Shown: positions 34,598 to 63,300 of the stretch, one piece after another
Layout of the letters: each line of letters starts with the position of its first letter
How positions within the stretch are numbered: position 1 is the stretch's first letter
Source: Marsupella aquatica
Lineage: Eukaryota > Plantae > Marchantiophyta
DNA length: 64,000 nt
Assembly: GCA_973895155.1 (NCBI GenBank)
Contig: OZ316893.1
Span: forward strand, 24,045,520 to 24,109,519
Reading direction: 5' to 3'
Made by a program: the position numbers and the translations under genes
The notes under the pieces: model-generated
Told to the model about the DNA's origin: nothing
Database searches by the model: none
Seen by the model: only the letters and a program-made list of their open reading frames with translations

Positions 34598-34639
34598 TGG
34601 GTCTATAAAAGAAAACCCATCAGTCCCACTCATGCTCGT

Positions 34640-35739: not shown

Positions 35740-37017
35740 ACTTCAGAGCATGGCATCACCATGCATTAGAAAAGCTATTGTCTTGAAATGCTAGAGGAAT
35801 TTAAAATGTTAGATTGTACAAGTGCTTTTACTCCTCTTTCCCCTGGATTGACTCTTTCAGCAGATTCCTCAGCCCCTGATGCTGATCTAGAGCTCTATTG
35901 TCGGATGGTTGGAAAGCTCATTTATCTTACCAACACTAGACCTGACATTGCTTTTGCTGTCAGCATGGTTAGTAGATTCATGCAGCATCCCAAACTTCAT
36001 CATCTACAAGCTACTCAACATATTTTCCTATACATCTGCAAGCACACTATTGACTTTGGTATTCTGCACACTCAAAAATTGAATCTTGGTTCCAGCCCAG
36101 TTGCCTGGAACTTTAAAAGACAGGCTACCACATCAAGATCTTCCACTGAGTCCGAATATTTGTCTTTGTCCTCTGGTGCCCAAGAAGTGGTATATATTCA
36201 TCGTCTTTTACAGGAATTGGACATTTTACCGTCTGCCGCTGTACCACTTCAATGCACGGATCATGATATTTTATCCGCTCTTCCTAGTTCTGCTCTTACT
36301 GTTCATTGTGATAATCAAGGAGCCATCAAACTAGCTAAGAATCCTGTTTTTCATGCTAGGACTAAACATATTGAAGTTCATCATCATTTTATTCGAGAAC
36401 AAGTCTTGGAAGGGGAGATTACACTGCAATACATATCGACTGATCACCAGCCAACAGATATTTTAACCAAGGCTCTATCCCGGTTCAAATTTGAACAACA
36501 TTGCACTGCTATTGGTATTAGAGATTTATCTTCATATAGATAATTTTGACTTTACAAATAGACAACTTACATAGAATATTGTCAAATCATTCTTCTGTAC
36601 ATTTGTCTCTTAGTTCCTTTTTGCGTTGACCATTATATATTAGTCACTCCTCTGCTGATTCTATAACAGCTTAAGGAGTGAGGGGGGGGGGGGGGGGTGT
36701 TGGAATTCTACTTAGAATTATACTCTCTATGCAAACTGTATAAAATTGGTTACAAGCTATGTTATGTTCTTGTGTTAGTTTCTTGATTGGCATCTAGCCC
36801 CGTGGGTGCCACTTGCTGAGTATTGCCAGCAAGCTATTTAATGCGGGCCCACCCTGTGTTCATTGTCTTTTATTCATGATTCAGTAAAAAGGTGTCCACG
36901 ACCCTTTTCTTCAATGTTGACATTTCCAGAATCTTACTAGCAATAGATATCCAAGTCATGCAAGTTATTGAATAGGAACAGAAAGTCACAAGGACTATGT
37001 TGACATTCCAGAATCTT

Positions 37018-40000
37018 TTTTTTGCCTCGAAAAAACTCAATGAATTCCATTCAAAAAGCCAGAATACAGAAAGGGGGGCCCAAGAAGGCAACCACCCGGA
37101 AGGACCAGAGGTCAAGGTGCCGGGGCCGGTGAAGCCGGAACCGAGTAAGAAGCCACGCCTCAAAAAAGGCAGCCAAACAAGAAATTTGGAAACTACTACA
37201 GGAGCAGCACACTCCCAAAGACCGGCCAGTGAACAGGGACCGGCGAGGTACCGAACAGTGGGTCCGTGAAAGAAAAACAATCAGTCTACCAGTAGTGCAG
37301 CTTCAAAACCCAAAGAATCCGTTGATTCATGGAGGACGCGGAGGAACAGGTTGAACCTGAAGTGTGTCTTCATGAATTTGCCATAAGCCATCCCATGCAC
37401 CAAAATCCCGGGCCAGGTCCAGTCGTGCATCGGTGATGGTGGTCTTCCCTGACCGAATCCTGGCCCTATGTCTGGCCCAGTCACGTTTGAGGTAAATGCC
37501 AAGGCGTTGCCAGGCCTTCCTGATGACTCCGTGAGGATTTGGTCGTGTATGCTCAATAAAGTGTGTGCATCGGTCCTTCCAAATATTCCAGCAAATAATA
37601 GCCCTGAGAAGATGCCAGAGCTTTGTTGGAATGTCCCATGTATCTGGAAGTTCAGCCCCAACAAAAATGTGGACTAGTAGGAGGAGGATCCGTCCTGCTC
37701 CGTGAGAGAACGCGCATTGTTGAAGAATGGATTGCACCCAAGTCCATATGCCCTGAGACACAGCACACTCCCAAATGCAATGAACGATGTCTTCGTGTTG
37801 GTTCAAACCGCATCTAGTGCACCATGTACTAGGATCAGTGGGTGGGAGACGAGGAAACCTCCAATGCTGTGTCGCCGGGATGCGGTAAAGCAGTTGCCAT
37901 AGGTAGCAGCTTTCCCGAGCAGCACGAAAGGGGAGCCAGGTGCGTGTCCATAATGTTCCAGGGTCAGGGGTCCAGTTCAATCGAATTGCCCATTTGTGCA
38001 GGGCCTTGTGGAGGATACTAGGGGATCTCCCCTGGATTACCCGTAAATGAGCAGTGGATGTATCCAGGAACGGAAGGCCATCCTTCCACTCGTGCTGGAG
38101 CAAGGGTGCCAGAAGGCCGACGGGCCTCCCGATGCGAAGCATGAGGACTGCAGCAGCACTCGACTTCCTAACCAAAACCCTGTGCAGGAGTGCCTCCGGT
38201 GGTGGTGCAAAAGTGGCCATCTTGTGTAGACAGTTGTTGATGACTTGGAAGGTCCGTTTTGGTGCTGAGGTAGCCTGGGCGAATTGCCATTGGGTCGTAA
38301 TGAGTTGCCTCGTGGTAGAGAACTCCCAGATGTACAGGTTGCCATTCGGAAGCCATGCTTCCATGAAAATAGGGAGTACGCCACTAGGCTCATGGTGCAA
38401 TTCCGGAACACTCTCTATCATCTTCTGGTAAGCGCAAGCACAATTCCGGGGTAATAATGCACTAGGCCCGTCCTCCCACCTCAGGAAGTGTCCCTGTGCA
38501 TCCAGGACATCCTACATCAAATGAAAACCTGCCCTCCTAATTTTACGTTGTGGATTGCTGTGGCACTTCGCCCCACTGGAGTTGATGTGGTTGAGATGAG
38601 GTCGCCAGAGAGGGAGGTGCCTCCAACCTTCTAAGTGTCCCGGAGGTGTGGGCCTCAAATGTTTCTTGACGACATTCCATGCAGTGCAGACATTGATCCA
38701 GACTTGTGAGCCCTCCCGAGGGAGAGTATGGCAGTGAGAGAATGCCCACGTGAAGTCGTCAGCTCCCCATTTTTGCAAAGAGAGTTTCCTAATCTCAAAT
38801 TGAAGGAGTCGTCGGAGGGGGTGATCTCCTTCCGCCAAAGCCCAAATTATGAAACTCCCAGCCAAAGCTCTGAATTGTGTCACCAAGGAGATCAATCCGA
38901 GTCCCACGTGACTCTTGGGCTTGATGATAGTAGCAAAATCAACCCTGGCCCGAGCCTTAGTGTTCTGCCCTGCCCATACAAAGGCGGTAATCTTCTTTTG
39001 CAAGTTATCTAGCGTGCTAAGCTGCCCCGCCCATATGGGAAGAGAGAACCACAGAGTGCTCAGAACCAAGTGATTGGCCACAGTGACCCGGGCGATCAGC
39101 GAGCCAGAGGTCTTACGAACTTGATCCAATCTAGATTCCAGCTTTTCAGATAGATAATGGACCATTTGATGTTCCGAAATGTGCTGCGCAATAGGAATCC
39201 CAAGGAGCTTAGTGGCATTGTGTTCATCTTCCCACCTCCAGGGTAGCCGCCTGAATTCAATTGGGATCCTCCGTGGGGAAATGTATGCAGCCTTGGTTTT
39301 TTCCCAGGCACAGAAAAGGCCGGAAGCCTTGCCGAAGAGGTCTAGAACCAGCCTGCTTCTATCGAGAAATTGTGTCTCGGCCCGAATCAAAAGAGCTAAG
39401 TCGTCAGCAAACAAATTATGAACATTGTGTACCCCCAGGTGTGGGATGTCGACCCCCTGAATGGAGCCCCTGCTGACTTCTCTGCTTAAGATGTTGCTAA
39501 GGGAGTCGATCGCGATAAGAAAAAGTAGAGGAGACAATGGACACCCCTGTCTCACCGAGCGGGCAAGGTTAAAAGGTGAGGCCATCCTCCCATTAAGTAG
39601 CACTGCCGAAGATGCAGAGGCATGGGTGGCACTCAGAAATCGTGTGAGTAGGCCGTTGAACCCCGTCTTCTCCAAGATTGACAGCAGGAAATGCCATTCA
39701 AGCTTGTCGAAGGCCTTGATGATGTCCAGCTTCAGTAGTATGTAATCCAAACCGGATGCCTTAGCATGGTGCAACGTTTCGTTTAGAAGCATAAGAGAAT
39801 GGTGGATGTTGCGCCCCGGGAGGAAGGCAAATTGCTGAGGCGAGATGAAAAGCTGTAAAATTGGAATAAGCCGCATCTGGAACGCTTTAGCTCCGATCTT
39901 ATGGGCTACATTCAACAACGTAATGGGGCGCTTATTGGTGAGGGATCTTTGGTTGTCTTTCTTTGGGAGGAGGACAATGAGGCCCTGGGTGATCTCGGGA

Positions 40001-41081
40001 GAGAAGTTCTCCTCAGCTAGGCCAAGCAAAAGTGCTCTGTGAAGCGATGGGCCCACCGTGTGCCAATTTGCCACGAAGAATTCGACGGGGACCCCGTCTG
40101 GGCCAGGGCACCTATTGATTGCCAGCGCAGTTGCTGCTTTCCCAAGTTCTTCCACCGTGAGGGGTGCATTGAGAAGATTCTGATCCTCCAACGGGATGCG
40201 CCTAGATTGTAACTCGAGGACCTGAGACACTTGTTCCCAGTTGAATCCAGCTGATTGTCCGAGGATGCCTTGGAAGAAGTTGGTAGCAGTGGCAGCCAGA
40301 TCTTCCCACCCACTGACGATTTGTTCCTCGGGGGTAAATAGATGGGTGATCTCCTTATTCATGGCCAGCCCCCGAAAGCTCCTAAAGAAGAGTTTGGAGC
40401 ATTTATCTCCCTCGCCAATCCACCTAGATTGCAGGATAAAGTCCATCCATCGAACCTGTTCTTCTTCAAATTCATGGAGGAGGGTCTCCGCATCCTTGAG
40501 GGACCTCTGGTACACTGAATCCATTGGGTCTCTCTCCAATTGGAATTGAGCAAGGGCCAAGTTGTGACGGAGCAAAGATTCCTTCTGCCTTCTCTCAATA
40601 GCTTTCCTCTTACCCCAGCATCGGTCGATCTTCCGGGCCTTTTTAAGACACCGAATGAGAATGACATCCGCCTTCATGCCCCTGGCAGTACAAATTTCCT
40701 CCTCCTGCTCCCACATTAGTGAGATACGGTCTTGAAAGGCACAAATTCGTTGGTGACCGGCATTCATTCGATGCAGAGATGGTCTCTTGATGAGGCCCGT
40801 GGGTGTGAGCTGGGCAATAACCGGGGCATGATCTGATAATGTGATGCCGGGTAAGATGGTGGATGCAACATCAAATTTCTCCCTAGAAGCTCCCCTGGAG
40901 ATATAAATGCGGTCGAGCCTTCTCAGAACCCGATCGCTATCAGCTTGTACATGTTGCATGCCTGGGACATGTCGAAAGCTTCTCTTATTATCCCAACTGA
41001 ATCTCAGGTGCCCTGGATGCTCCTGGAAAGTATCAACCAGGTGCAAGCGTCGCTTAAGGTGGCGCCATGCCCGTCCTTCGC
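37018..41081 (-). mobile_element. 5'-truncated L1-clade LINE
   Basis: Poly(A) tail (T run at 37016-37023) and TSD TTCCAGAATCTT at 37006-37017 and 41082-41093. ORF2 has the endonuclease tail RRLDRIY/SDHAPV, RT motifs PGPDG, KRPITLLN, KLDIIKAFD, RQGCPLSPLLF and FADD, and the zf-RVT motif CTRC...HCIWEC. Confidence 0.96.
37327..41079 (-). pseudogene. LINE ORF2 (EN C-terminal part, RT, zf-RVT) with a single in-frame stop at 38512-38514
   Basis: ORFs 38512-41046 and 37327-38421 are in the same frame and the 30 codons between them are open. Confidence 0.9.
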
Positions 41082-42550
41082 TTCCAGAATCTTACTCGCA
41101 ATAGATATCCAAGTCATGCAAGTTATTGAACAGGCAGAAGCAGCGAAGAGGAAGGCAGACACCACATTGCAAACCAAAAGCCCGGGGAACTGGTACAAAA
41201 TGAACAATCCCAATCCCAATCTGTGCTCGTTGTTTGCTCACACACAGGCGATAGTCGTCTGCAATCTACAAGCAAAAACGTTTTGCAAGCAGTTGTTCTG
41301 TAAACGTCTACAATCGACAAGCAATTGTTCTGCAAGCACACATTCTCAATCTTGATCATTGTGTGCAGTCTATGAGCAAAAACGAGATCGTCTGCAATCT
41401 ACAAGCAAAAATGAGAGTAAATTTAGTCAATCCCGTTCCTGGTGACATGATGAATGTGAAATCCGAAATGTCCCTGTGAAAATGTATGAGTGAAAAGTGA
41501 AAGTAAATGTTAAGAGTAAATCCAAGTAATTGAAAAGCGGGCATGGGCAGCGGCAGCATTCAGAGAAAAAGTGTGGCCTGAAAAAGTGACATCAGCCAAA
41601 ATGTTAAAAAGGAGAGGCCAGGTGGCTTCCGGTAGGCAATGGGGGAGAACCTATGCAGTATACAGGGATTTGTCTCTGTGAATGTAGCAACGTTTATCAA
41701 CAAAGGTCACACCAATGCAAGCTACTGTACACTAGCAACACTCAACTCTCGAAGAAATTTCCTTGATGAAGACCTTACGAAACAAAGAAGCACAATTATT
41801 GAGTGCTCTGGTTATCAATAAAAGAAAGAGACTAAACTTAGTAAAACAAGAGCCAAACAAAGTGTAACCAAAAACAGAGGAAAAAGTCCAGGCAGGACCC
41901 TATTAAACCAAAGAAGTAAAGGTATCATGAACTACACTACAATCTAAGGCTCATCTGTTTCGGGAAGTTTCACCACAAAAGTGGGTTGCCCTGAGTGTTA
42001 GGGACGCTTGAAGAAACGAGGGATCACTGCATGTTTACGTTCTTTCCAGTGGGTTTTGAATCTCAAACCTTAAATTACTCAACACGGCTATAGGGGCCAG
42101 GATTGTTTCCACACTATGAGTAGAATTCAACATATTAATTTATTACATAAATATCTGCTAAATGATTCTGATGACGAACTAGGTGATTTGTTTCACCCTG
42201 CCTTGGCGGGACTCTGGCATGCACATAGATTCGTTTTTCATCGCCCCCTTCGCACACATTGCTCCTTTTAGTCCTGTATCTCCAGTGTTCTTTCATCATA
42301 GCTTTGTTGTATTGCACGAGGTTAAAATTACGCACGTACTGCTTCCATCAGCAGCTGCAGCTTTTCCGGTCACGAGTAACATGCACATTCCATTCTCCAA
42401 GCTATACACACTCTCCAGGACTCGAACACTTTGCAATCACAAGTGGTATGCATTTCCTTTTTTGTGGCCTGATGCTACGAAACCTCACAAATCTCATTTT
42501 CACTCAAGGGCTTGTGGACGGGAACGGGATCTACAACTTCAACAGGCATT

Positions 42551-44888
42551 ATGGGCAACTGGGTGAAGAACATCTTCGTCGAAAATGAATTGGAGAAAAC
42601 GATCTTAGCTGCGGTCATTATGGCAGTGGTTCTCCGGCTGATCGTACTCAAGACCTTCCCGGGATCCAAATCTAGGGGCCATCTACCGCCAGGTCCTCTC
42701 AATCTGCCAGTGGTCGGTGCCATGCTCTCAGTAGAGACAAACGTTGGAGAGTGGTATAAAAAACTGGCCAAAAAGTTTGGGAAGATCTTCTATTTCCGTC
42801 TGGGTTCCCACGGGATGCTCATTGTGGGTACAGCAGAGGGAGCCGAGGAAGTTCTGAAGTTAAAGGATCTTGCATTTGCAAATAGACCAACTAACGCATT
42901 CTTCAAATCTGCTGGCAAGTACATTGGGTTTGATTCCGAGGACGTTCTGTTTTCGAATTATGATCGGGCGCACAAGAACTTGAAGAAGTTGCTCACCGTG
43001 AATGTCTTCAATCCCTCTGAGCAGCACCGTTTTGAGAACGTCAGGAGGCGTGAAGGTATGGGCTATCTGGATGTTTCTTGCTTTGATTGGATATCTCGAG
43101 TCTCCTCACGTCATTGCCGTGACGTCCATGATCATCGTCTCTTTCATTTATAGACTGGATGCCAGCGCTCGGACCAGCAGCAGACGATTCTTGGCTGGTG
43201 TTTTCATTAAGATACAGGGTTTATGATGTACCACTCGTGTTTCAATTTGATACATGGAAATTTGAAGATCAGGTTCTCCTCAAGTTGAAAATCATTATAT
43301 ATGCCACTTCTCCTGTTTCCAATTGATGACCAAAAACTGTGTTTCACTGGGGACTCATTATTCACAAACTCGTTGCAGGTAAGTTTCTGGCGGAGGGCAT
43401 CCAAAGGCAGATAAACTCAGAAGGCATCATAAACGTGGGCGAGTCTTCCTTCGGCCTGGCCGTCAACTTGCTCTGCTCGCTCATCTTCGGAAGGCGGTAC
43501 TCTGATTCACTGACCTCCGAAACGGACCAGCTCAAGCACTGCCCTGACCTTATCCGCGGCGCCACTGATCTCATTCTAAAACTGAATTTCGGGGACTTAT
43601 TCCCATTGCTTGCGTGGGCGAACTATCAAGGATGGACCAAAGAGTTCAAGGAGTACAACCAGCTGTGTCATAGGGTGTTCGGGCAGAGTATTGAGGTACA
43701 CTTTACGTAACTGAAGCATTGCAGGGAAACATTACTAATCTTGGATCAAGTTTGGATACTGTGTAAAACTGTTGACCTGCAGAGAAAAGAAATGAAGATA
43801 CGTGTTTCGATGAAATTGTGATTTCAGGAGCACAGAGAAGCGAGGAGAGCCAATAAGAGCTCCACCGACCGAGACTTTCTGGACATTATGCTAACACTTC
43901 ATGACAAGGGGACAATTTCGGACAATGGTCTTTTGGGCTCTCTTATCGACATGCTAGTTGGAGGAACGGACACTAATGCTGTCACCGCAGAGTGGGCTAT
44001 GCTGGAGCTCGTCACAAATCCAGGTAAAAGGGAATCTGCAAACTTGTTGTGATCAGTTCCTTTTCGTTGCACCGTACGTCTTGCCGCCCCTTGAGTGCAA
44101 GAAAGCTTTGAATTCAGACTATGACACGATATATCAACAACGGTATCCAATTAACCACGTGAAATATGCCACAGACTACAAAACGAACACAACATGCTCG
44201 CAACGAAATTAAGAGAACAACTAGAAATCCAATCGACTCAACTTTTGTGATGGGTGGAGAGAGACCCTTTCGAAGCTTTAACATAGTTGTTCACATTTAA
44301 GATTGCCTTGCCAATTAATTTTCCACAGATTGTCTCACCAAGCTGCAGAAGGAGATGGACGAAGTAGTTGGCAAAGGGCGACCCGTGGAGGAATCTGATT
44401 TCCCCAACTTGCCATATTTCCAAGCTGTTATCCATGAGACCTTTCGGCTGCACCCTCCTCTTCCTCTCTTGGTGTCCCACTTCACCGCGGAAGCAACGAC
44501 CGTGCAAGGGTTCTACGTCCCTGCCAACACAACTGTATTTGTGTACGTTGGACTCATCGCTCGGGACCCTCTCAATTGGGAAGACCCTGAGAAGTTCAAT
44601 CCTGAGAGGTTTATGAACTCCAAGGAAACTATCAATATCACAGAAGGCAATCTCTTCAGCTTGCTTCCATTCGGAAGTGGGAGGCGGAAGTGTCCAGCGG
44701 CTCGGATGGGGGTGCTAACGGTTCAGAGAGTGATTTCCACTCTCGTTCATGCCTTTGATTGGAGTCCGTTACCTGGCAAGACAATCGACGACATTGACAA
44801 GACGGAGGTGATTACTACCGTGTCTCGTCCAGCGACTCCACTTTTGTTATGTGCTAAGCCTCGGTTAAACCGTGCTATCTACTCTTAA
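42551..44888 (+). CDS. Cytochrome P450, CYP71 clan (525 aa). Exons 42551-43055, 43379-43695, 43828-44023, 44329-44888
   Basis: N-terminal TM helix and LPPGP hinge, I-helix DMLVGGTDT, K-helix ETFR, PERF and heme motif PFGSGRRKCPA. GT-AG introns have compatible phases. Confidence 0.95.
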
Positions 44889-48885: not shown

Positions 48886-49599
48886 CTCTTGTCACATTAT
48901 TTTTCCAATATAGACACTAGTCCTTGAGTTTGCACTAATGTAGTTTTTGACACTTTTCTGATTTTCTTCATCCTTTTTTTGTTAAAACTTGCTTTTATTT
49001 TTTTGTGGTTAAGTGTTTGTCCTCTTTGGAACTCTTTTTCTTTCCTTACTTCCATTGTACTTGTTTTACACTGATGTGTAAATTTTTCTGGAAGATTCAC
49101 TTTTTCTTTCTAGATGTGACAAGAGAAGATCTTATGGAGGACTTGAGGGTCCCTTTTAAATCAATGATTTAAAATAGGAATGGACCAAGAAGTCAATAGA
49201 GGAGACCTCCAAATCTAAAATCTAGGAGAGAAGAGAGCTACACATAAGCAAAAATTGGGTCCCACTCCATTCCATTCCATGTAGGATTGGTAACAAGTTT
49301 GGTTGAAAGTGCCCCCAACATTTTGTAAAGTGAAGCAACAATTTGTCCCTAATGGATGACTTTGGTTCAAAGTGCTCCAAACTTTTTGTGAAGGGCAGCC
49401 GTACGTTTCTCCCTAATGCATGACTTGGGTTAAAAGTGCCCCCAACTGTTTGTAAAGTGAACAGGGGCAGTTCCGTCCTCACGGATGAATCTGATCAGAT
49501 CTTGGAGACAGAAAAAGAATGAACTTGTAAGTAAAGTCACCCTTTAGATTTATTCCCCCCTGAAGATTCTTAGTTTGGTTTTCCAGTTTTCTTCTCCTT

Positions 49600-50621
49600 T
49601 TGCCAGTGTATTGCAGCCGGCCGTTTGCCTCCTCCCGTCTCTCGGCTCTTGAGTGCTTCTCGTTTATTGGCCATGGCTAAGTCTTCACCGGGTGTTCGGC
49701 CAATAGCTATTGGAGAGGTATTTCTTTGTCTTGTGTCTCCCACACTTTCATCGCAGTATAGCTCTGCACTATTGGATCACCTCTCTCCACATCAGTTTAC
49801 AGTGGGCGTTCTTGGCGGTTGTGAGACAGTTATTGCGGGTATTCGCACTACCTTGGACCTCCACCCTAATTGGGTTGTCCTCCATGTTGATGTCTCTAAC
49901 GTTTTCAACACGGTTTCTTGGGCAACAAATTTTTGTGCTTTGAGGGCGGCGGATCCAGACATCCTATCCCTTATCCCCTTTGTCCGTTGTTTTTATGGAC
50001 TCGAGGCCCCGCTCTTCTATAGTCATCACACCTATACTGGAGAGTATACCACTCTTTTGCAGAAGGTACACGTCTGGGTGACCCTTTGGGTGGGCCTCTT
50101 TTTGCCATTGCCCATTTTATAGCTTTACGGGAAGCCATCGTGGCCCACCCCCAGTGTATCTTCCCCTCCCTTTCAAATGACACCCACACCATTGGTCCTC
50201 CCGCAGCGGTTACTTCTGCCCTTGCCACTCTCTCCACCCATTTGATGGGCCTTGGTTTATGGGTTCAGCCCGTGAAGAGTCGTGCATGCAATCCAGTTGG
50301 GTTACCCTTTGATCTTGTGCTTCCCCTGGGTTACTACGTCCAGCCGATGGTCTTTGGGTCCTTGGCTCCCCAGTCGGTACCGCCTCCTTTTGCTCATCTT
50401 TCATCGTTGACACTCTACAGGCTACCTTAGCCCCTACTCCTATGCTCCCTAAGTTAGCAGATTCTCAGGTAGCATTTGGGATGTTGTTGAGGTGCATCCA
50501 CCCTCGTGCGCCTTATTTGGCTAGGACGCATCCCCCTATCGAGGGTCTTTGTCTCCACCTTCGAGCGTTTGACGTCTGCATTCATGAGACTTTGGCCTCT
50601 CTTTTAGGGCCAGATATGTTG
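49600..50621 (+). mobile_element. Degenerate CRE-clade reverse transcriptase fragment, cut at 50621 by the CACTA insertion
   Basis: SRLLAMAKSSPGVRPIAIGEVF, HQFTVGVLGGCE, VDVSNVFNTVS, GTRLGDPLGGPLFA, FPSLSNDTHTIGP (degenerate xxDD motif) and VLGSPVGT, with frameshifts. Confidence 0.8.
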
Positions 50622-51416
50622 CACTAGTACATTTTAGGGCCAATTACCGATATTTACACCATCGGATGCCTTCGGGAAAATGCGACGCCATTTTTGAGGT
50701 TTCCAATCCTAACTGCAGCAATCCGTCCGATACTCTCAGAATCGGATATCGACCATTGGACCTGTTTTGGACCACCCGATACCAATACTATCGGACTTTG
50801 CATATCTCCTGAAATCGGATACATTAGTTGTCCGATATCACAAGAGTCGGAAGAAGCCTCTCCTTGCACCATGTGAAGATCTGTTGTCCGACTGTTGTCC
50901 GTATTAATTTGCAAGGGATATTGCGTTAAAATTCCCATCGAACATTGCGATGGTGAAATGAACGGACGTTCCAATAGTTTTGGTATTGGAATTTGAAGTA
51001 TAATTGGTATCGGAACATACGAAATGGAGGGGTTCGGAAGCATTGGAGGGGTGCAATAGAAAAAGTATCGGAAGAGTACTCGGGAAAGACCTAGCTTCAT
51101 TGCAACATTTGGTTTCTTGTGGGGATCTTTTCTGTTGGGGTTGAGGGTGGTTCTTGGGGGAATTTATACAATACAACATAGAGGGATTTGTTGAAGATGT
51201 TGAAGAGGTTATTTGAAAGAGAATGCCAATAGAAGTAATTAACACAAGAAGGATATATGGCCACAAAGGGTACTCAAACTCCAAAAGGGAAACATACCCC
51301 AAAATGTACAAGAGTGATCCAAGTACTGGGATCACAAAAGTAAGCACATCCAACTCCTAATCTCGTCTAAGTCTAAGGCTAGACAGTATGTCTCTATCTA
51401 TCTAAGCTAGTCTAAG

Positions 51417-54403
51417 TCAAAATGGAGCATGTCGTCCCTTCCTCTTTTTGGAACGAGTCCGAGGTGGTGGGGGTACAATACTAGTCTGGGCAGGAGCCTG
51501 GGTGAATGGGGGCTCGTCCATGGTGACTTGGTCCACAACATCTGGCCCCTGTGTAGAGGTCATAGGAGGCACTGGACACACGCCACCACCACCACCACCA
51601 CCATGTGACGCTAGGGAGTCATGGGAAGGTCCGCTCCCCCCACTTGCATGGCAAGTATGAAAGGAAGCTGCACCACCCCCACTAGCCCCGTTGCCAATGG
51701 ACTGCCGTGATGTACCACCCTCGCTCCCTCCTGAATGGCCAAGGGCAATATGAGCACCCCCAGTCTGGGCTGAAGGGTGAGAGACACCAACACCACCGGC
51801 TGTACTCCCTCCTAACTGGCCAGGGGAAGGTTGACGACCCCCAGTGCGGCCTCAGTGGTGAGAGCTAGACAACACCGACACTACCTCTACTCCCTCTACT
51901 CCCTCCTGACTGACCCTGAGCACTAACACCGCCCCCAATGTGGCCTGAGTGGTGAGACACACCACCGACTCTAGCTCTACTCCCTCCTGACTGACCAGGA
52001 GCAGTAACATTGCCCCCAATGTGGCCTGAGTGGGGAGAGACACCACCAACACCACCACTCCCTCCTGACTGGCCAGGGGCCTTAACACCACCCCCTGTCG
52101 AGCCTGAGTGATGAGAACCTCCCAAGCCACCCCCATCTGCACCAGAGTGTTGTGAGCCTCTAGAACACCCTTCCCCATGAGGCTCTAATCGGCCAGACCC
52201 ACCAACAGCACATCGCTCATCTCGCAACACATGCCAAGGGCCTCGAATATCAGCTCTGCCACTAGCCCGTGACCGGCGCCGGGGACCCTCACCACCTGTG
52301 CCAACAGCCCGTGAGTCACGTCTGCCACTAGATCCAACCCCTATGGCTCTAGGCTGGTGATAGAGGGGTCCCACTAGCACCACCCCTACTGGTCCTAGTA
52401 TGTGTCGCACGAACATCCGCTATGGGACCATGACGGGTCGACTGAAGAGCCCTAGCACTACCCCTAACTGTATCGGACCGGCGAGGAGGGGGTATGGCCA
52501 CAATCCCCTCCTCTGGGTCCAACAACTCTGAATCAGATTCGCCGGATCCCCCACTGCTATGCCCTGAGCCCTCATCCACCGAGTCCTCACCCTCCGATCC
52601 CTCCTCATCTGAGCCCTGCATATATCCAACCAACAACCCAAATTAGTATACGCTTTTTAGAAATAAATTTCAACACCCCATTAAGACATTGCATTAAAAA
52701 TAATCTCCTTACCGAACCTAGCTCCTCCTTCAAGTGAATCCGAAGAGCCCGTGGTCCTTGTCTCTTAGCCAACTCCCTCTCTTCTGGAAATATTGGTCGC
52801 CCATGCTCGCGCTCCTGCCCCCCTCAAAAAATGCACCGGCAACCAAATTAGTCCCAATTAGTGCCACCGGGTCACACCCCAATTAGATCCACACTGGATC
52901 ACCCCCAACACGTTTTGAAATGGTCAATGGAACCAACCACGATAATCTGCAAGGGTAACCGTCAAAAAATTTGAAAATTCAAACTGTCCAATTACTTTCC
53001 GATTGTTTGTCCGATAGCATCAAGGTCGGATTGGAATCGGACACGACGTCCAAAAAAGCCATAGCAGTATTTCCGACTGTCTTTCCGATTCTATTACTAT
53101 CGGACCATAATCGGAAATAGGGCCACGACAAAAAAGATAAGAGTTATCGATTGCATGCATAGCGCGCTTGCAGGGCCCGCACGGCTTGACAATAAGAGGG
53201 GACTTTGGGCCGGGGCTCTTCAGGCAAAGAAGGGCCTCAGGTGATCAGGTGAATGGAGGGAAGAGCTTGGAGAGAGAAGGTGGAGTCTACTTATAGATTC
53301 TGCCTTGAGACGCAGTGACGCGCCCTGCCCCATTCTGTGAGTGACTACTGGCCTGTTATCAACTCGAATCAATGCCTTTTGCATATGTGAGGGAGGGTCC
53401 CTAAGCTGAATTGACTTTGCATCCCAATGTTGCAGGTTTTGATCAGCATGGCGGGTGTCAATAGTCTCCCCTACCTGGGCCCTCACTGCAAGGACTTCTA
53501 GCTCAGCTTGCCATTATCTCCTTGCCTACCAGGCTCGAACCTGTAGCTCGGTTTCAATCCAAGCTGGCCATACCTCCACAGGAATATCATTTGGGCACCC
53601 TCTTTGCCTGATCACCTCCTCACTGTCCTTGCACTCACCAAGGTACTTCCTCAGCTTCTCCCTGATGTGATTCCTTCTGTCTGCAAGGGATAGAGTGATT
53701 TTCTTGTTTAAGAACCTGTCATCAATGAATGAGCCATTGCAAAAACGTTCCTTCACCTGCTCACAAACTCTGAACTTCTCTTCTTCCTTTTTCTTCCCCC
53801 AGTAATCTAACACTCCAAAATGGGATCTAAGTACTTGCCCAAGCTGACTCCTGAAAAGATTATAGCTCTTGGCCCTCGGAGCTCCTCCCTCATTCAAATA
53901 AATTTTTGGCCTCTTGCTTCTCTCCTCTACTCGCAGCTTCTCCTCCTCGGCTCTTTTCCTATCTGCAGCCCGTGCCTCTCTACGTAAGGCCTTAACTCTC
54001 TCTGTCGTGGTGAGAGGGCCTCCACAGGTACAGTCTCCTTCTCCTCCCTTCTCTTCCTCTTCTTCTCTTTCTCCCTAGTACGCTGCCTCTCCTCAAATGT
54101 TTTCTGAGCTTCAGCAAGAACAGTGCTCCTAGAAGAGTCTAGCAATCCTTGTGTCAATGTAGCCACCTTTTGCGCATGCTCTATGGAGAGCCCTACCTGC
54201 TTATGGAAAATTTCAGCCATGATCTCCCCAAAGTCTTCTGATGGCCCTGCTCCATCCCCTGTAGCTCCTCCAGCCCCACCTCGTCCAGCTCCTGACCCTC
54301 CATCTCCACCATCTCCTTGCCCTCCAGCTGTTCCTCCAAATTCTGTTCCTGTCCCTGCTCTTGCCCCTCCCCCAGCCCCTCCATCGCTCCCCTCCATAGC
54401 CAT
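51417..54403 (-). pseudogene. CACTA accessory ORF (TnpA/Transposase_24-like), multi-exon and degraded, with a Gly/Ser/His-rich repetitive C-terminus
   Basis: MAMEGSDGG...; LGQVLRSHFG...VCEQVKERF...LADRRNHIREKLRKYL...GCPNDIPVEVWPAWIE; a small exon at about 52713-52815 (EREHGRPIFPEERE) flanked by AG/GT; repeated ctccctcct.actg units at 51720-52120. Has stops and frameshifts. Confidence 0.6.
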
Positions 54404-55305
54404 TTGCTCTTCGCTGCCGTGCGCCACGCGCTTGTTTTTCACAAAGACATGAACTCCCGACTGTTTTTCGATGCAAAGCCCGACTCAAGTGCATTTGCAC
54501 TTAGGTCGGGTGCCCTAAAAATGCTTCCGACTACTGATCCGATTCTATTTACATCGGAAATTCCCATTAAAAATGTATCGGACATTGTATCAGATGAACA
54601 TCGGACCCCTCCTGCAAAGCACTAACCTAAGGCTCTTCCGATATAGAGAACATGGTAAATGAATTTGGTCTTTCTTTGGATGACACTACGTTGGTTCTAT
54701 GTGTTGTCCAGGGGTTCTACGGATAGGGCGGACCATTGGAGCCGTGGTATCCCGAGTCACATGCATGATTTTGGAGGTGGTTGGTATGTATAAGGGTTGC
54801 AGGTTATTTTTAAAGGTTACTCCAAATTTTTAGGGTGGCATTTAATTTGGAGTGCCAAATACAATTTGACCTAGCTTACCTTATGCATTTTGCATTCGGA
54901 ATTTTGCAGTTCCTTTTTGTGGAGGGTTAGGTTATTGCGATTATTTTGGGTCCATTTTTGCAATGCATCATGCACAGTGAGAGCCCGCACATCTGAAAGG
55001 TATTACCACCTCTACAATGTGAGCTATATTTACTATGAAGTATTACCTATAATTACTATGAATTATTGATATTGGTGTACCCCAATTAAGCTCAAGTGTA
55101 CTTGTGCAGCAATTTCAGATTTGTCTTAGAATATAGTCTAAGGCCAAGATCCTAGTCGGCACTGCAAAGCGCGGGTCTCATTCAGGTGTTATTGATATGA
55201 AAACATCTCTCTGTCTTTTTTGCCTTCATATTTATTGCATTGGCCTTACACATTTAATTCCCACAATGGCACATAAAAGGTTATTTTTGTATGGGTGATG
55301 GACAG

Positions 55306-55541
55306 ATGTCTTCTTCCGAGAGTTCAGAGTCGGATTCCAACTCAACCTCTTCATCTTCTGAGGGGGACATTCCTCCCCCCCCCCCCCTCCGAGGCTTCAA
55401 TGTCCTCCTCCTCTAGGCCCTATTCCATGTTGGTGTGTCCGATGTAAAGGCATGGTGGTTCGTCAAGCCTGGGAAGCCATTGAGCATATTGAGAACTATG
55501 GTAGACACGAGGGCAATTTACCGGGATATTCCACTCGCGAG
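55306..55541 (+). CDS. First coding exon of the CACTA plus-strand gene: transposase-associated Cys/His domain
   Basis: ATG at 55306 after acceptor ggacag. MSSSESSE..., then across a 1-nt shift in the C13 run (55375-55387) IPCWCVRCKGMVVRQAWEAIEHIENYG, matching the CxCxxC...H-x3-G pattern. Phase-0 donor gag|gtatgc at 55541/55542. Confidence 0.7.
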
Positions 55542-55749
55542 GTATGCACAATTAATTGCTCTTGGAGACATTGACATGTACAATTTGCCACATTGCACCC
55601 ATACATTTATTAATTGTTGGTTTTTTTGTGATTGAATAGGTGCCTCGTAGGACCCCTCCTCCATTGGTCTCTAATGACTTATGGGTAAATACACTTTTGG
55701 CTGGTGCAAGAAAGTTGCTTGCATCATCATCAGCTCCCTCTCCATCTAG

Positions 55750-56559
55750 CCACCCCCCCGTGTTCAGCCAGAGAGTGTAGCAGATCCATCTAGGGTTGGA
55801 CGCACCCGAGCACGTTCCCAGAGACAACGTCGCCATTATGATCCCTTGCCAGGCACTCATGAGACCGAGGAGCAAGTTGTAGACCGTACTCTTAGAGTGC
55901 CACCAGGAGAGGACTATGTGGAAGTGGAAGGGAGGTTGGGGTTGTCATATGTCACCGGGAAGGCATTGACAGTGTTGAAGGATTTCTCGTCTGAGAGATT
56001 CAAAATACCCCCTGGCCTAACCACTGATACCCCTATCCACATATGGGGTCACCAATGGATAGTGAAGGCGTCTTCCCTTGGCCCTGACATAGGATTTGGG
56101 GTGTTTTCCTTGGAGGACATTGTGGTCCCGCCCAAGCCGTGGCCCCAAGGTTATGATGGTGAGCACCTATTTCCATACATTGGTCCTGTGTATACTTCAA
56201 AATGTTGGAACATTCTATTGCGCCAACACCCATCGTGGGGTGTCTATGCATTGCAAATGGATTCTGATCCAGATGAGCTCATACGGAGGCCTTGGCATTC
56301 TTGGATGATTGATGGCGACCCTATTTGCTCCGATAATATAGCTGGGTACATCAATAGTACTCGTGGTAGAGGGAGAGGACTTAGGCCTAATGTAGAGTGG
56401 ATTCAGATATTTGGTCCACCTAGAGAGCCTTACTATGTAAAACATATGGATGATCATGTCATGACTATAGCCATTACAACCATTAGGGCTGGCCAGGAGT
56501 TGTTTTGTGACTATGAGTGGGATAGGCCCAAGAAAGCATTGCTTTCTCGCCCCGTGTAG
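55750..56559 (+). CDS. SET-domain protein exon inside the CACTA element
   Basis: Uninterrupted frame with VKASSLGPDIGFGVFSLEDI (GxG motif I), LFPYIGPV, YAL, IDGDP..NIAGYINST (motif III), PNVEW and AITTIRAGQELFCDYEW (motif IV). Confidence 0.88.
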   Translation, partial: PPPRVQPESVADPSRVGRTRARSQRQRRHYDPLPGTHETEEQVVDRTLRVPPGEDYVEVEGRLGLSYVTGKALTVLKDFSSERFKIPPGLTTDTPIHIWGHQWIVKASSLGPDIGFGVFSLEDIVVPPKPWPQGYDGEHLFPYIGPVYTSKCWNILLRQHPSWGVYALQMDSDPDELIRRPWHSWMIDGDPICSDNIAGYINSTRGRGRGLRPNVEWIQIFGPPREPYYVKHMDDHVMTIAITTIRAGQELFCDYEWDRPKKALLSRPV

Positions 56560-56797
56560 GGCAGACATATATGTATATATACCACCTTTTTGTTTAACAT
56601 AAAATACATGATACAGGTTTTCAAACTAAATTGGTTAGTTGTGTAAGTCAATCTTTGATCAAGGTTTGAAAGTATACTAGTAGAATACATGTGTAAAGAG
56701 AATTGTAATTTTGCGGGGAAACCAAAAAGCCTATACCTTTAAACACTTGTCTCATTGTGGCCCTTCTAATATAATACGTATGTTTGTGAAATGTTAG

Positions 56798-59700
56798 AAT
56801 GCATATGTTCAACCAGATATGGGGGTATTATCACGAGCAATGCGGCAACACCTTGTTGAGGCCATGGGTGATTGGCATAGGGCTCAAGCATCAGAGAATG
56901 AAGATGTCCCTCTTGAGCATTTGTCTAATGCCACCAAAGATAGACTTGAGGAGGAGAGGGCCATGGATGATCTTATGCACCAGTTCTATGACGTGGAGGA
57001 TGGTGACCATGATATGGGTGATGCATTTAACACCAATGCACATCCTCATGGTGACAATCCTTCACAAGGTTCTTCCTCTAGACAATGGGAGGAAGCTCGT
57101 GACCATGCGCAAACACGGATTTTTGAGGGGTCACAACTATCTCGGCTCTCAGGAATAATGTTATTGTTGAACTTGCAGCAAAGACATGGAGCAAGCAATC
57201 TCCTTCTTGATGATCTCTTCAGGACCTTGCATAGTCGTATTTTGCCAGAAGGGAACTACTTGCCTAGTTCATGGAAAGCGGCAAAAAAGGTGTTGAAATC
57301 CATAGGCCTCAAATACGAAGTCATACATGCTTGTGTGAATGATTGTGTTTAGTTTAGGGGGGAACACAAAGATGCCACTACATGTCCTACATGTGACCAA
57401 CCGAGGTATCGAGAGGACATGCTGACTGGAAAAGCAGCACAGAAGGTCATGAGGTATTTTACTCTTATCCCCAGATTACGGCACTAGTACCGATGTGCAG
57501 AGTTGGCTGAGTATATGGTGTGGCATTCCAAGAACCGGTCAGATATGAGTTCAGATTGGCCGACCATGCGTATGATGGTGGACTCACCTGCAAATAGGTT
57601 TGTGGAGGACCGATGGGGTGACTTCAAGACAGACCCACGTCATGTACGACTAGGTTTGGCATCAGATGGGATCAGCCCCTTTGCATTGGCCGGGAAGGCC
57701 CAACCATACTCAGTTTGGCCAATAGTCCTTACAAATTACAACATCCCTCCATGGATGGCCATGAAGAAAGGTCATTTGCTGCTCTCAATGATTATCCCAA
57801 GCCCCAAGCAAGTAAAAAAGATTGATGTTTACTTGCAACCATTGTTGGAGGAGCTTCAACAAATATGGAGGGGAGTGGATTGCTATGATGGTCGAGTGCT
57901 GACAGGTGGTTTACCTCATGAATTTAAATTAAAAGCCATCGTTATGTGGACCATACATGATCTTCCTGGTATGTTAAAATATACCTTCCCCAATATTATG
58001 CATGGTTTTTTATGGTAGATAATACACTATAGGATAATGTTATATATAAAAGTTTGCGTGGCTATTGTTTAATGTATTGATTGTGTGTGTTGTAGGGTTT
58101 GGATATATCTCTGGGTTGCAGACATCAGGATACCGAGCCTGCCCAACTTGTGGTCCTGATTTGGAGGGAGTGGCACGCCCTAAGTCTACCACCCTACGGA
58201 AGATAGTTTACATTGGTCACACAAAGTATCTCCCCCCAGAGCATGAATGGAGGCGTGACCCATTCTTATATGACACGGATGATGGCCAACCAGACACACG
58301 CCCTCAACCAGTGCCAAGGGATCCACGCTATTGGAAGGAGGTATGGGATAGAGTGACAGACCCAGATGATCCCTTACCATTGGCCCGGTGTGGCATGACT
58401 CATTTGTCTACATTAATGTCAAAGCTACCATATTGGGCTGAGATGCCAATTAACAATTTGTTTGACCCTATGCACATTGAGGGGAACGTTGGGAGGTCAT
58501 TGATTCGCCATCTATACGGAGAGAAAGACAACAACTGGAGAGAGAGTTGTGAGGAGATGGGGATGCATGGTCCTCATGGTTTTTGGCCATCTATGGATCC
58601 CCCTAATGCCCCCCTTACTATTCACCCTCCTCGGGTATTGACCAGAGGCGAGCGGATTGGGTTCCGCAATCGTATAGGGTCAATGAGGTTTCCTACGGGC
58701 TACGGGGCCAATCTGCACAAGGCATTTGGGGGACCAGACTGTCCACGTTGGCCAGCTTTCTTGAAGACCCATGATTACCATCGTCTACTACAACATGTCA
58801 GTCCAGTGGCCATCATTGGATTGGGTGGTGAGGATCTTTGTGATGCCCTGTGGTCATTAGGTAAGCTCTTGAGGTGGGTGTGTCAAAAAGAGGTGAATGA
58901 GGATGAGATTGCAGCTATGGACTTGTTTGGAGTGGAGGTATTGTGCAAGTTGGAGAGGGCACTCCCTCCTTCATTCTTTAATGGCCAAGTTCACTTCCTC
59001 CTACACCTAGTGCGTGAGGTTGGCATTGCAGGGCCGGTACATTGTCGTTGGATGTACTGGGTAGAGCGGTTTATGAGAGTGATGAAGTCATATGTGTCAA
59101 ATCGTGCGAGAGTGGAAGGTAGCATCGCTGAGCATCATCTTGGAGCAGAGAGCATGTTTTATTGTACAAACCAATAGCTACACTTGATCCCAGTGCACCA
59201 AGGGGGTGGATAGACGAGGCATCAAGGGAAGCAGACTTTGAAGATGACTGTCTTACAGGGGCAAAGGGAGAACGACTTTTGGGCTCAGCTGAGCACCTTC
59301 AACTCACTACATTTATGTTGTATAACTTGTCTGAGATTGCGGGAGATTGGACAACTTTTTATAAGGAGGAAAAGGCAAATAGTCATCGGCCACGCATCTT
59401 CCCCAAGTTTGTCCCATACATGAGGGCAAAGTTGACCAAGATTGATGCCTTGTTGGAGCAAGGGGAGAGCGTGTCAGACTTCCCTTTGGTTACAGACAGC
59501 CTTTGCACCTTGGTTCATGGACCATTACTCACGGTGACAACTCGGACCGCCATGTGGTCAAAGGGAAGGCATTTTCGTGTGCAACGGCTTGATGATAAGA
59601 GGGCAGCTACATAGGATTGTGGGGTCATGGGTTGGTTCACCCAAGATTCACAAAGTAGCACATCTAATAGGAATCCAATACGCTCTACAGTGGCCCACTA

Positions 59701-60052
59701 TGGCAAGATTGAAGAGATATTGACAGTGCGTTATCATGCACACACCACTTTGGAGGAGGTGGTGTTGAAGTGCAAATGGTTTCGGATGAACCTTGTTGGC
59801 CATAACCGAACTTGCAAAGAGGATGCTTGTGGGTTCACAAGGTTGAAGACAGGTGCAAATAGGGTCATTAGCTCAACTTGGAGAACCTCTGATCCATTTG
59901 CATTCCCCCACCATCTTGAGCAGGCCTTCTATCTTCCGTATCCTGATGATCCTGAGTGGTCCATTGTCATGACTTATATTCCACGATCACGATCCATCAT
60001 CCAGGAGCGACCCAATGTGGTTGTAGTTGAAGATTTGGACCCTGAGCCTTGA
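56798..60052 (+). pseudogene. tnpD: CACTA TnpD transposase (Transposase_21, DUF4218 and DUF4216-like regions); intron 57969-58095; several stops and a frameshift
   Basis: LPEGNYLP, IHACVNDC, CPTCDQPRY, RHVRLGLASDGISPF, YSVWPIVLTNYNIPPW, IDVYLQPLLEEL, HDLPG|FGYISG, DPMHIEGNV, LKTHDYH, WMYWVERFM and DPFAFPHHLEQAFY. Stops at about 57350, 57485 and 59612, and a frameshift at about 59170. Confidence 0.95.
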
Positions 60053-60317
60053 GGTCCTTGGTAGCTAGTGTACCTTGGGATTAATCTCGTAGGACCCCTC
60101 CATATGTTTATTTTTACCGGCATTATATATATCATTGTTGTATTTCATGTTCCCTCTACTATGAAAGGGACCAGATTTCTTAATAAAGTTATGAGTATTT
60201 GTTTTCCACACCATATCCGATACAATGAACATCGCATAATTGTCGGAAGCATCTTACCTTAATTCCGAAACCTTGTCCGATTCAGTCTACATCGGACCCC
60301 TCTTAACAGTTATAACC

Positions 60318-63300
60318 CACTAGTAGAAACCGGGGCAATGTAGACCATACCTTATAGGACTAAGCCCACTAAGTCCTTTTTCCATACTTGAAACGACTCG
60401 CACCCATTGCACCGGTTTTGTTGAAGACTACAAAAGACTATTAGTGTTTTGTGGTTCACTAAAAGACTATGAGAAGTAACCTTGCTACTTTGTGAACGGT
60501 GAATAGTCTAGCACATCATGGGTAATGTTCACTTATGTTGAGGAGGGGTAATTCTATAAAGAGGGTGATAGCAAGGGGCATAACTCAATAAATGGCCTTA
60601 TTTGTGACCAGAAAGGTTTTGGAGTGAGGTTCATGGAGGGTGGACTACGGAGGGATCGATTACTCACTCCATCTATAAAAGGCCAAGATGCACAAAGGTA
60701 GATTTGTACCGGTCTCAAGGGGGTGTGGGTTTAGGGTTAGGGGGTTGTCCAGCCGAAGAACACTCGATTGAAATAGTGACGCAATGGTTTAGGGTAAAGG
60801 AACATGTTTAGGGACCCTAACTTGTTTGCTGCCTTGGGAGGATCTTGAGAGCCTGAGGCTTCTACTTGCGCGACCGTTGGAGGGGAGCGAGTTGGAGCAT
60901 CCGTTGGAGGGTCAACTCTGCATACACTTTGCACCTCCACACTCTGTCACACCCTAATCCCGCCACATTTCTAACCCTTTGCACTTTATTGTGTTGTCTT
61001 TGCAGGCATTCACGGGCATTCACGGCCACTACTGTATAGTGAGGTTTAGTGTTCCACCTTTCTTGTGGTCGGTGCTGCGGACTTAGAGACGTGCGGACTT
61101 AGAGACAAAGGATTTGGTTTAGGGTCACCGTCGTTGAGCTGAGCACTGTTACAACTTGAGCAACGACCAAGCTTGGCAGCGCTCTGGGATTTGTCGGCCA
61201 CATTGACAAGTCAGAGGTGAGTGTTTGTTCTGATAGTGTTTTGAAGGGTTTTACAGTCGCGGTCGGACAGGAATGTTCTTCTCAGGAGGCGCTGAGTTTG
61301 ACAGGTCCATGTAGTTGCGCCACATGGCCCTCCTATTTTTCTTTTACTCCCACAGTGAGCTCCCGTATGAGCTCTTGTGTGAGCTTTGTTCAGCTGTGGT
61401 GGGTGCTGAGATGATTTCCGTTGAACTCAGCTATGCTATGCTGATTTTCGTCTAAGCAAGCTCGGGGGAGGGTTGCCGGTTGGACGTTGGAGCTGTGCTT
61501 GTGATATTTTGGGGTTCGGGCAAAGGGCGGAGGGTGAAGATCAAGCATTGCCATTTTGCTAACGCTGCATGGTGGAAATTGGACCAACCAACTCCTTGTC
61601 TACGGTGTTGTTGAGCTGGGCGAGCTGCGACAAGGGACCGAGCCAGGCGACCTGTGAATCAAAGCCCATCAACCGCTGCTGAAGGTTTGATGTTCTATAT
61701 TTGAAGCTCTCGTTTGCTTTCTATTTGTTAGTCTTTCACAGCTGCGCATTAGTGTTGGCCCTATCCTCCGTCCCTCTACTGGCCTGCTACTGACATTTGG
61801 TTAATCATAGTTGTTCACTGCTGTGCATTAGTGTTGGCCCTATCCTTCGTCCCTCTGCTAGCCTGCTACATTTGGTTAATCAAAATGCAATGTCTGTTTG
61901 AGTGAGCTGATCATCTCCAATGTAGTATGGGCTTGGGATTTACATATATGTTTCCTGCTTCCAGCAGATAGGCAATTGCTTCCAAGCTCTTTGGTGCAGA
62001 CATCTCTATGGAATGCAATGCCCTGTATGCCAGAGCTTTCATATATTGGCAGGTTCACATTTGCTCTTGGAATATATGATCCCGAAGGCTTCATGAGCAA
62101 ATTTGCTCTTGTTCAGAATTCTGTTTATGTTGTTGTTTCCATCAATTGCAGCTTGGATTTTTGAATATATGTCCTGTCATTGATGATAGAGGGTGGTTGA
62201 GATTGGTTTTCTTTCTTCTTGGTAGTGGGTCAGTGTGTTGGCATTTTCCTCATGTCACTCATTCTCATCGGACAAGCTGCGGATTGGTACTGAATATTCA
62301 TTTAGCCTATTGCTGCCTCCCACCGCCATTGCCGATTGCCGTTATCATCGTGTATTGCTTGCTTGCTTGCTTGCCACTGCCTTTGTTGGTTGCCACCCTC
62401 TTCATACTCTCTCGCATCTATCTTCCGATATGAACACGCAGCCAAGCCCACCAAAAGCTCTGTCCCTACAATCCCTCCCAAATCAACTTTCTTGTTTCCT
62501 GCTGCTCATGATCACCGCATTGTTCTTCCCTATTTTTGTTTACTTATTGGTCTCTCCACACTTGTTGCTTCACATGACTATTTTGCTCCTCCCTGGATCC
62601 GAACATGCCTTGTGCCCAATGCTCCCACGGTGGAGTGGGGTGGTGAATAGACGACCTCAACACCGTTGCAATCACATTTGGAGGGGTTAGTTTTTTGCAG
62701 CTTAAACCTGTCGGGATTTTGCGCTTGTGGCAACGCTATCCTTTCTGCCACTTCATGAGTTTGTTTATGCTGCAGTGGTCGGTCTTGCGCAACTCAATGA
62801 GCCAATTTCATTTTCCCTGTGCACTTCTATTTCTCAGAGAATTCCCTGGTCATGCTCATTTGCCCCAGAGTTAGAAAACAAAGAAGAAGAGCTGACTAAT
62901 TGTAATTCCAATCCATATCCTGATCGGTCAAGGATTGTGAACTACATTGGCCTTGTCATCGGCCGAGGTCACCAAATTTTGCTTGGTTTCATTCCTGTGG
63001 AGCACTGCTGTGATGGATGAATAGTTGTGTCTTGCCCTAAAGTGGGACATTGGATGAATCCCTCATGCCTTGTCTGTTTTCAAAAGCTCACAGTGTTTAC
63101 CTTTAGCTATGGGCGGTTGACATCTTTTAGCATTCTTTGTGGTGGTGCCTTTGTTCGTTGCAGAGCTCCTGCTCCAACTGCCCCTTTTTCCTGGTAAGTT
63201 GTGCAACCTGGATTCCAGTATAGATTGAAGTATTCTTGTCTTAATTGTGTCTATGTACATAGTGTCCTTCATTGCAACTGTCGCTTTGACCTGCTGAGTT

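Follow-up and report, generated by a model that had tools for sequence, protein, structure and literature searches.

A probable shared first coding exon for a SET-domain protein and the TnpD transposase in a CACTA/EnSpm element of the liverwort Marsupella aquatica

Introduction

En/Spm and the Arabidopsis SPM3/7 transposons each produce two proteins, TnpA and TnpD, by alternative splicing (PMC13547354; 10.64898/2026.08.24.746577). The accessible main text of the second of these reports does not mention a SET domain. Here, we describe a 64,000-nucleotide (nt) stretch of the Marsupella aquatica genome (NCBI GenBank assembly GCA_973895155.1, contig OZ316893.1, positions 24,045,520 to 24,109,519 of the forward strand), hereafter called the window, whose positions are used throughout. 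It contains a broken member of what we classify as a CACTA/EnSpm family with many copies, in which one coding exon with a Cys/His domain is probably spliced either to an exon encoding a SET domain or to the body of the TnpD transposase. The locus resembles En/Spm in its TnpD domains (PF02992, PF13960, and PF13952), likely CACTA-type left end, clusters of short motifs, and likely production of two proteins from one transcript. The difference is that the second product would be a SET enzyme, whose exon lies within the first coding intron and which would have the Cys/His exon in common with TnpD, while the candidate for a TnpA-like protein is a separate gene on the opposite strand.

SET domains have been described in several groups of DNA transposons. 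In the red alga Bostrychia, Plavaka elements of the EnSpm lineage carry the accessory gene PAG2, which encodes SET and DNA-methylase domains (10.1101/2025.02.11.637652). Like the Marsupella element, they place a SET domain within the EnSpm superfamily; however, PAG2 is one of three accessory genes and has the extra methylase domain, and the accessible part of that preprint mentions no exon shared with the transposase, the likeness being one of description. SET genes are also reported for HarbingerS and MuDR of Phytophthora (PMC12730594) and for Helitrons (10.1101/2025.02.11.637652). These are likewise DNA transposons with a SET methyltransferase gene, but they belong to other superfamilies, and the first two are from oomycetes.

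According to the accessible parts of the published accounts, the anti-silencing proteins VANC of VANDAL elements and TnpA induce DNA hypomethylation. The likeness to the present case lies in an element protein thought to act on the chromatin of its own element through short repeats; the difference is that the accessory protein of the Marsupella element is predicted to be a lysine methyltransferase in its own right. A SET domain and a transposase are joined in one gene in SETMAR (Metnase), which is a host fusion gene with a domesticated mariner transposase, unlike the alternative products of a mobile CACTA family. In the literature searched, which did not extend to Repbase, most subscription journals, or bioRxiv supplements (including Supplemental Table 6 of the Bostrychia preprint), neither a CACTA element with a SET gene in a bryophyte or other land plant nor a case of a shared exon was found. 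SET genes in DNA transposons are already known from oomycetes and red algae, and the probable shared exon and the land-plant CACTA case appear to be new to this literature.

Splice Sites of the Candidate Shared Exon

The exon in question, as the initial annotation had stated, encodes a segment reading IPCWCVRCKG...EHIENYG and ends in the phase-0 donor GAG/GTATGC. The three acceptors claimed for it, aatag/GTG at 55639/40, ctag/CCA at 55749/50, and gttag/AAT at 56797/98, are all present in the phases given. When the exon, taken from 55362, was joined to them by script, the reading frame remained open for 269 amino acids (aa) past 55750 and for 184 aa past 56798, and it met a stop after 46 aa when joined to 55640. 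In-frame AG dinucleotides are common (8 of the 19 in 56560–56900 share the TnpD frame); thus, a phase match alone is weak evidence.

The window was compared with contigs of four sequencing runs from two studies. These contigs behave as DNA: they cover the introns and contain no splice joints, as expected, and their depth is not equivalent to copy number. Other copies of the element were read in these contigs, in protein records, and at one further locus. Diverged copies have retained the donor as well as both the 55639/40 and the 56797/98 acceptor. Their alignment continues through GTAT (55542–55545), drops out in the intron, and restarts at AATAG/GTG (55635). It is lost again in the tail after the SET exon and picks up again at 56791, which is 7 nt upstream of the TnpD exon (joint 56520>56791). 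The two conserved acceptors also have features in common: AT content of 0.79 at 55639 and 0.68 at 56797, no upstream AG, and a branch motif each (at the latter, CTAAT at −32 with no competing AG). By contrast, the 55749/50 site has an AT content of 0.53, two AGs upstream, and no branch motif.

A metagenome scan with a nine-row SET alignment yielded 108 pattern matches, from which one locus, L001, was recovered. Its SET domain is 45% identical to that of the window. L001 has an intact exon 1 with an ATG, a Ser-rich leader, the CHCTKC..H..G motif, and an ATG/GTATGT phase-0 donor, followed by a 111-nt intron with an AATAG/GCT acceptor; the frame is then open to the SET stop, after which an AT-rich tail follows. 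Five database proteins align with the frame of 55640–55777, and P0001, P0003, and P0010 continue from it in frame into the SET domain. In the Calypogeia fissa model P0089, exon 1 is joined to the segment that starts at 55640. P0087 and P0088 continue into the intron at Q/V. Given the homologues that align with the 55640 frame, the P0089 joint, and the intact L001, we regard 55640 as the ancestral SET acceptor on sequence grounds. The initial annotation had favored 55749/50 for the SET exon. That site exists and is in frame, yet it is weak, lies within conserved coding sequence, and is not ancestral. The second suggestion of the annotation, 55639/40, is borne out by the homologues that read through from 55640 and by a more diverged copy, lacking 2 nt, which is in frame.

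The Cys/His domain and the SET domain occur in the same predicted protein in 9 of the 84 SET relatives, five of the nine being training rows. A Logan contig of 2141 nt (P0017) has both in one called protein of 423 aa; the contig may derive from a spliced transcript, or the gene may lack the intron in this version.

Cys/His Domain of Exon 1

The exon had been labeled the first exon of the gene. Diverged copies in the run contigs skip 55003>55121 and 55187>55296, and two introns are inferred in the 5′ untranslated region (UTR), so that 55306–55541 is more likely the first coding exon. In the window copy, the ATG at 55306 is not in frame with the Cys cluster owing to a C13 run at 55375–55387, and a TAG lies at 55414–16. 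Run pieces that are 5 or 2 bases shorter at C13 are in frame; one listed piece is 3 bases longer and one is 2 bases longer. An assembly error and a private mutation are indistinguishable as the cause of the C13 run. The substitutions listed for 55440–55514 are silent in the Cys frame in all seven cases, and no second-codon-position change occurs among 18 rows at 55440–55539 and 55688–55724 (among the rows listed, 40 of 99).

The predicted structure of the domain comprises two strands and a helix (beta-beta-alpha), with a predicted local distance difference test score (pLDDT) of about 92 over residues 21–50, which fits a zinc-finger-like domain. A fold search with this model gave no match, and the exon-1 profile found nothing below E 0.05 among the sequences of solved structures. 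The initial annotation had identified the exon with the transposase-associated domain PF13963. This was not confirmed for the window itself, as neither exon 1 nor its L001 counterpart gave a Pfam hit with E up to 10. PF13963 is weakly matched by four of eight members of the exon-1 family (best E 0.0015) and is the only family common to more than one of them; in P0062, the match covers model positions 32–61 of 74, leaving the N-terminal half of the model unmatched. The spacing of the motif fits the CxCxxC-x12-14-H-x4-G pattern of the CACTA transposase alignment in the accessible material of PMC4158355. An assignment to a P2RX7_C-type domain (Atlas 0.88–0.90) was rejected as uninformative, as that family is found on only 13–21% of the cluster members.

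SET Exon and the Predicted Protein

As had been annotated, the SET exon has its own stop (56557–56559) and an AT-rich tail. Its open reading frame (ORF) matches PF00856 with E 3.3e-6, above the cut-off, and the full-library search returned 84 relatives at E up to 0.001. The structural model (pLDDT 92) has the SET fold. Its nearest solved structures are SETD8, Legionella LegAS4, and MLL1, and viral SET proteins fit about equally well. All these minimal enzymes share with it the fold and the GxG, YxG, and ELxxxY motifs; however, at 18–21% identity and a template-modeling (TM) score of about 0.45–0.49, they are too distant for a substrate to be read from them. The window retains GxG, YxG, Asn, and the final Tyr, and a post-SET Cys cluster is found in none of the 84 relatives. 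The protein is likely active as a lysine methyltransferase.

Between the window and L001, identity at the three codon positions is 0.56/0.66/0.36 over 204 codons, which is conservation of the coding type. The SET domain lies beside TnpD in Calypogeia and Riccia models too, with the SET domains near 35% identical. All SET relatives that were looked up are liverwort models or contigs, with no named host genes among them; the named relatives are gene models of Calypogeia fissa and Riccia sorocarpa. The proposal that SET is an integrated module rather than cargo is in line with this long conservation and with the joining of exon 1 to SET in L001 and liverwort models, and an integrated, long-conserved part of the element is thus the supported reading of these sequence comparisons.

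Several observations on the liverwort models can be added. P0067 and P0115 of Calypogeia fissa (about 505 aa) are distant SET relatives with N-terminal Cys/His-rich repeats in place of the exon-1 domain, and they possibly belong to a different element family or have been domesticated. Riccia sorocarpa and Calypogeia fissa models P0018, P0021, P0029, P0030, P0037, P0041, P0043, P0049, P0054, P0062, P0075, P0080, P0089, P0117, and P0118 resemble pieces of the transposon family. Such transposon-like models are annotated as host “SET domain-containing” or hypothetical proteins.

TnpD Body and Its Connection with Exon 1

The TnpD body matches PF02992 (E 2.1e-38) and PF13960 (E 1.9e-29) above the cut-off and PF13952 (E 1.6e-6) just under it. 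No CxCxxC-H-G motif is present in the TnpD body of the window, and a six-frame scan with the exon-1 family profile gave one match in the whole window. In the CACTA transposase alignment of supplement 2 of PMC4158355, 32 of the 59 “CPC” places were examined, and all are near-N-terminal CxCxxC-x12-14-H-x4-G motifs; maize En1 is among the carriers (same supplement). The first 16 aa past 56798 align with the TnpD starts of four of five Riccia models (shuffle p 0.0002–0.014), and the four aligned models have no Met in their first 62–81 aa. One exon likely serves both the SET and the TnpD products, since the TnpD body is without the motif, exon 1 has the spacing of the N-terminal motif of CACTA transposases, and the TnpD starts of four of the five Riccia models lack Met.

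A metagenome scan with an alignment of the TnpD N-terminus produced 598 pattern matches and no relative. The longest contigs of P0090 (SET) and P0101 (TnpD) are both 5790 nt in length and may be one contig.

Damage in the Window Copy

Neither full product can be made from the window copy. The SET product is interrupted by two frameshifts, one at C13 in exon 1 and the other near 55750–55759 in the SET exon; TnpD has stops at 57350 and 59612 and a frameshift near 59172. At the first of these stops, every contig that covers position 57351 has a T there; at 59171 and 59174, insertions are recorded. The SET frameshift was considered as a homopolymer assembly error, and this was rejected, as the closest contigs carry the same frame break: in all four runs, 3 nt are missing at 55750 from the closest copies, which does not restore the frame from 55640. 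The break is therefore inherited by a subfamily. This subfamily has either lost SET or uses the weak 55749/50 site.

Proposed Mechanism and Alternative Explanations

We propose that exon 1 is alternatively spliced to SET at 55640 or to TnpD at 56798, which the sequence comparisons make probable. One transcript with two 5′ UTR introns would reach the shared exon. If spliced to 55640 and polyadenylated in the tail, this transcript would encode about 385 aa, comprising an acidic leader, the Cys/His domain, a linker, and SET, while splicing to 56798, skipping 1256 nt, would yield a TnpD that carries the customary N-terminal motif. Polyadenylation in 56560–56790 would be the switch between the two splices. 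As the likeliest function among those considered, the shared Cys/His domain would steer the SET enzyme and the transposase to the same targets, and SET would methylate the chromatin of the family’s own copies, keeping them expressed.

Provided that this splicing occurs, SET quite possibly writes an activating or anti-silencing mark. Action on a substrate other than histones, for example on the transposase or on a silencing protein of the host, is a less likely role, a self-limiting repressive mark is unlikely, and an inactive binder would be improbable. A still broader reading is tentative: an old bryophyte CACTA lineage could encode its own histone methyltransferase family as a splice alternative of the transposase, aimed at element motifs by the zinc-finger exon, with a splicing or polyadenylation switch balancing jumping against marking.

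Several facts weigh against a shared exon followed by a working SET enzyme. The Riccia registers were picked by eye, three of the four aligned models are close kin, and P0043 is unaligned at the exon start. Residues 8 and 15 of the window TnpD exon are in-frame Met, the second of which is the start of the Calypogeia model P0100. Exon 1 was found joined straight to TnpD in 0 of 3 protein records in each of two relative searches. The L001 sequence ends 225 nt past the SET stop, before the TnpD acceptor. PF13963 is not matched by the window exon, and one scored relative reaches 14.9 bits against a cut-off of 27.7. The usual SET motif is NH, with His after Asn; it is present in none of the 84 SET relatives, 61 of which have NS or QS. 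Finally, the frameshifted subfamily may have spread without a working SET.

If the locus consisted of two head-to-tail genes, exon 1 would belong to SET only, and TnpD would have its own promoter in 56560–56797 and an internal Met start, for which the two Met codons and the start of P0100 are suited. Tandem separate genes do occur in Arabidopsis SPM2, 5, 6, and 9, according to the accessible text of PMC13547354. However, such a TnpD would lack the N-terminal motif of flowering-plant CACTA transposases. Moreover, conservation begins at the acceptor, upstream of both Met codons, the four Riccia counterparts have no early Met, and 56798 is preceded by a branch motif and a tract free of AG, all of which makes separate genes quite improbable. 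Very improbable, too, is a SET–transposase chimera, in which exon 1 would be spliced to the SET exon, and a donor within it or at its end would lead on to TnpD. The liverwort models P0043, P0080, P0054, P0075, P0037, P0118, and P0089 do join SET parts to TnpD, but at differing places, and all except P0043 cut the final catalytic Tyr motif; such joins would be typical of gene predictors on broken copies. What these models do show is that SET and TnpD adjoin each other in different families. In addition, no consensus donor occurs downstream of 56357 in the window, and the stop comes a few residues past the Tyr in both L001 and close homologues.

The use of the weak acceptor 55749/50 as a rescue in the frameshifted subfamily is compatible with the alternative splicing of exon 1 in an ancestor. 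It would suit the closest copies of the four runs, which are out of frame from 55640, and the site provides the in-frame AG immediately downstream of the last stop before it. Nevertheless, its composition, the two AGs before it, and the missing branch motif tell against it, a conserved segment of 37 aa would be lost, and the more diverged copy that lacks 2 nt is in frame from 55640; we consider this use distinctly unlikely. As for captured cargo that has no role in the element and is spliced out of the TnpD transcript, SET is indeed broken here and probably in the closest subfamily. On the other hand, it is found at the same site beside TnpD in the Calypogeia and Riccia models despite the low identity of the SET domains, its conservation relative to L001 is of the coding type, and none of the relatives looked up is a named host gene, so that cargo is highly improbable. 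Alternative splicing of exon 1 to SET or TnpD is the reading we retain.

Structure of the Element and Its Surroundings

The element is about 9.7 kb in length (Table 1). Over the element and short flanks, 743 to 2786 contigs per run were aligned, with identity from <90% to >99%, which indicates a dispersed CACTA/EnSpm family. At the likely left end, CACTAGTAC..., flanking-repeat contigs diverge from the window letters at 50613 and 50622. This end truncates a broken remnant of a reverse transcriptase of the long interspersed nuclear element (LINE) type at 49574–50627 (RVT_1 weak, E 0.096), over which the contig depth is very high; the continuation of the interrupted LINE was sought in the window and was not found. 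A search of the window for a right inverted repeat matching the left end and for a 3-bp target duplication also found none. A second CACTAGTAG / CACTAGTAGAAA is located at 60318 (60318–60700), directly downstream of the final TCCGA cluster; a partner repeat for it was not found. Contig depth is higher in 60363–60700, and 60318–60700 may be another repeat inserted into the right end of the element.

Table 1. Features of the CACTA/EnSpm element in the window.
Feature	Position	Strand	Basis or remark
Likely left end, CACTAGTAC...	50622..50635	+	Sits in LINE-like remnant
TCCGA/TCGGA clusters	50662-51068, 52998-53111, 54526-54637, 60216-60292	.	Motif count
Broken Gly/Ser/Pro-rich ORF block with ~81-bp repeats and basic C-terminal stretch	51417..52642	-	Sequence
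Broken divergent gene, possibly TnpA-like	53220..54484	-	Frameshift and stops
Two inferred 5′ UTR introns with short non-coding exon between	~55000-55118 and ~55186-55305	+	GT/AG sites
First coding exon: Ser/acidic leader, Pro linker, CxCxxC-x13-H-x4-G domain, phase-0 donor	55306..55541	+	Sequence, homologues
Intron, 98 nt, GTATGC...AATAG, branch motif at −30	55542..55639	+	111-nt L001 counterpart
SET exon: linker and SET domain, own stop	55640..56559	+	PF00856, homologues
AT-rich tail: likely SET 3′ UTR and end of long TnpD intron	56560..56797	+	Unalignable in diverged copies
TnpD body, intron ~57970-58096	56798..60052	+	PF02992, PF13960, weak PF13952

TCCGA/TCGGA motifs number 43 in the 9696 nt tallied inside the element against 54 in the 54304 nt outside, and all seven TCCGA-N9-13-TCGGA pairs of the window fall within the element. 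One cluster is close to each presumed end and two lie further inside, in keeping with the subterminal motifs of CACTA/EnSpm elements, and they are candidate binding sites for an element protein.

Two further blocks lie on the opposite strand. In the Gly/Ser/Pro-rich ORF block, a unit of about 81 bp is present in five copies at 51716–52131 and encodes Gly/Ser/Gln/His-rich repeats. The block has its own TCCGA cluster upstream and no match in a Pfam search; it may be a further accessory gene. The possibly TnpA-like gene gave no meaningful Pfam match either; in the Atlas, it is closest to eukaryote clusters (0.94–0.95), and a PF03004 cluster at 0.89 is a lead only.

Elsewhere in the window, an intact single ORF of 447 aa on the forward strand (12511–13854) appears F-box-like by eye, and forward-strand exons at 42473–44888 resemble a cytochrome P450 gene, also by eye. 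At 30991–36543 on the forward strand and 37327–41091 on the reverse strand, broken ORFs of copia-type retrotransposons and one long ORF of a LINE (859 aa plus 394 aa) were recognized in the same way.

Implications

The SET family described here differs from the solved SET enzymes. Many “SET domain-containing protein” models of Riccia and Calypogeia appear to be transposon exons, which would affect the counts of SET genes in these liverworts. If the proposed splicing is true, a transposon that joins a lysine methyltransferase to the first exon of its transposase would write chromatin marks directly, and this would represent enzyme-based self-marking by a transposon in land plants.

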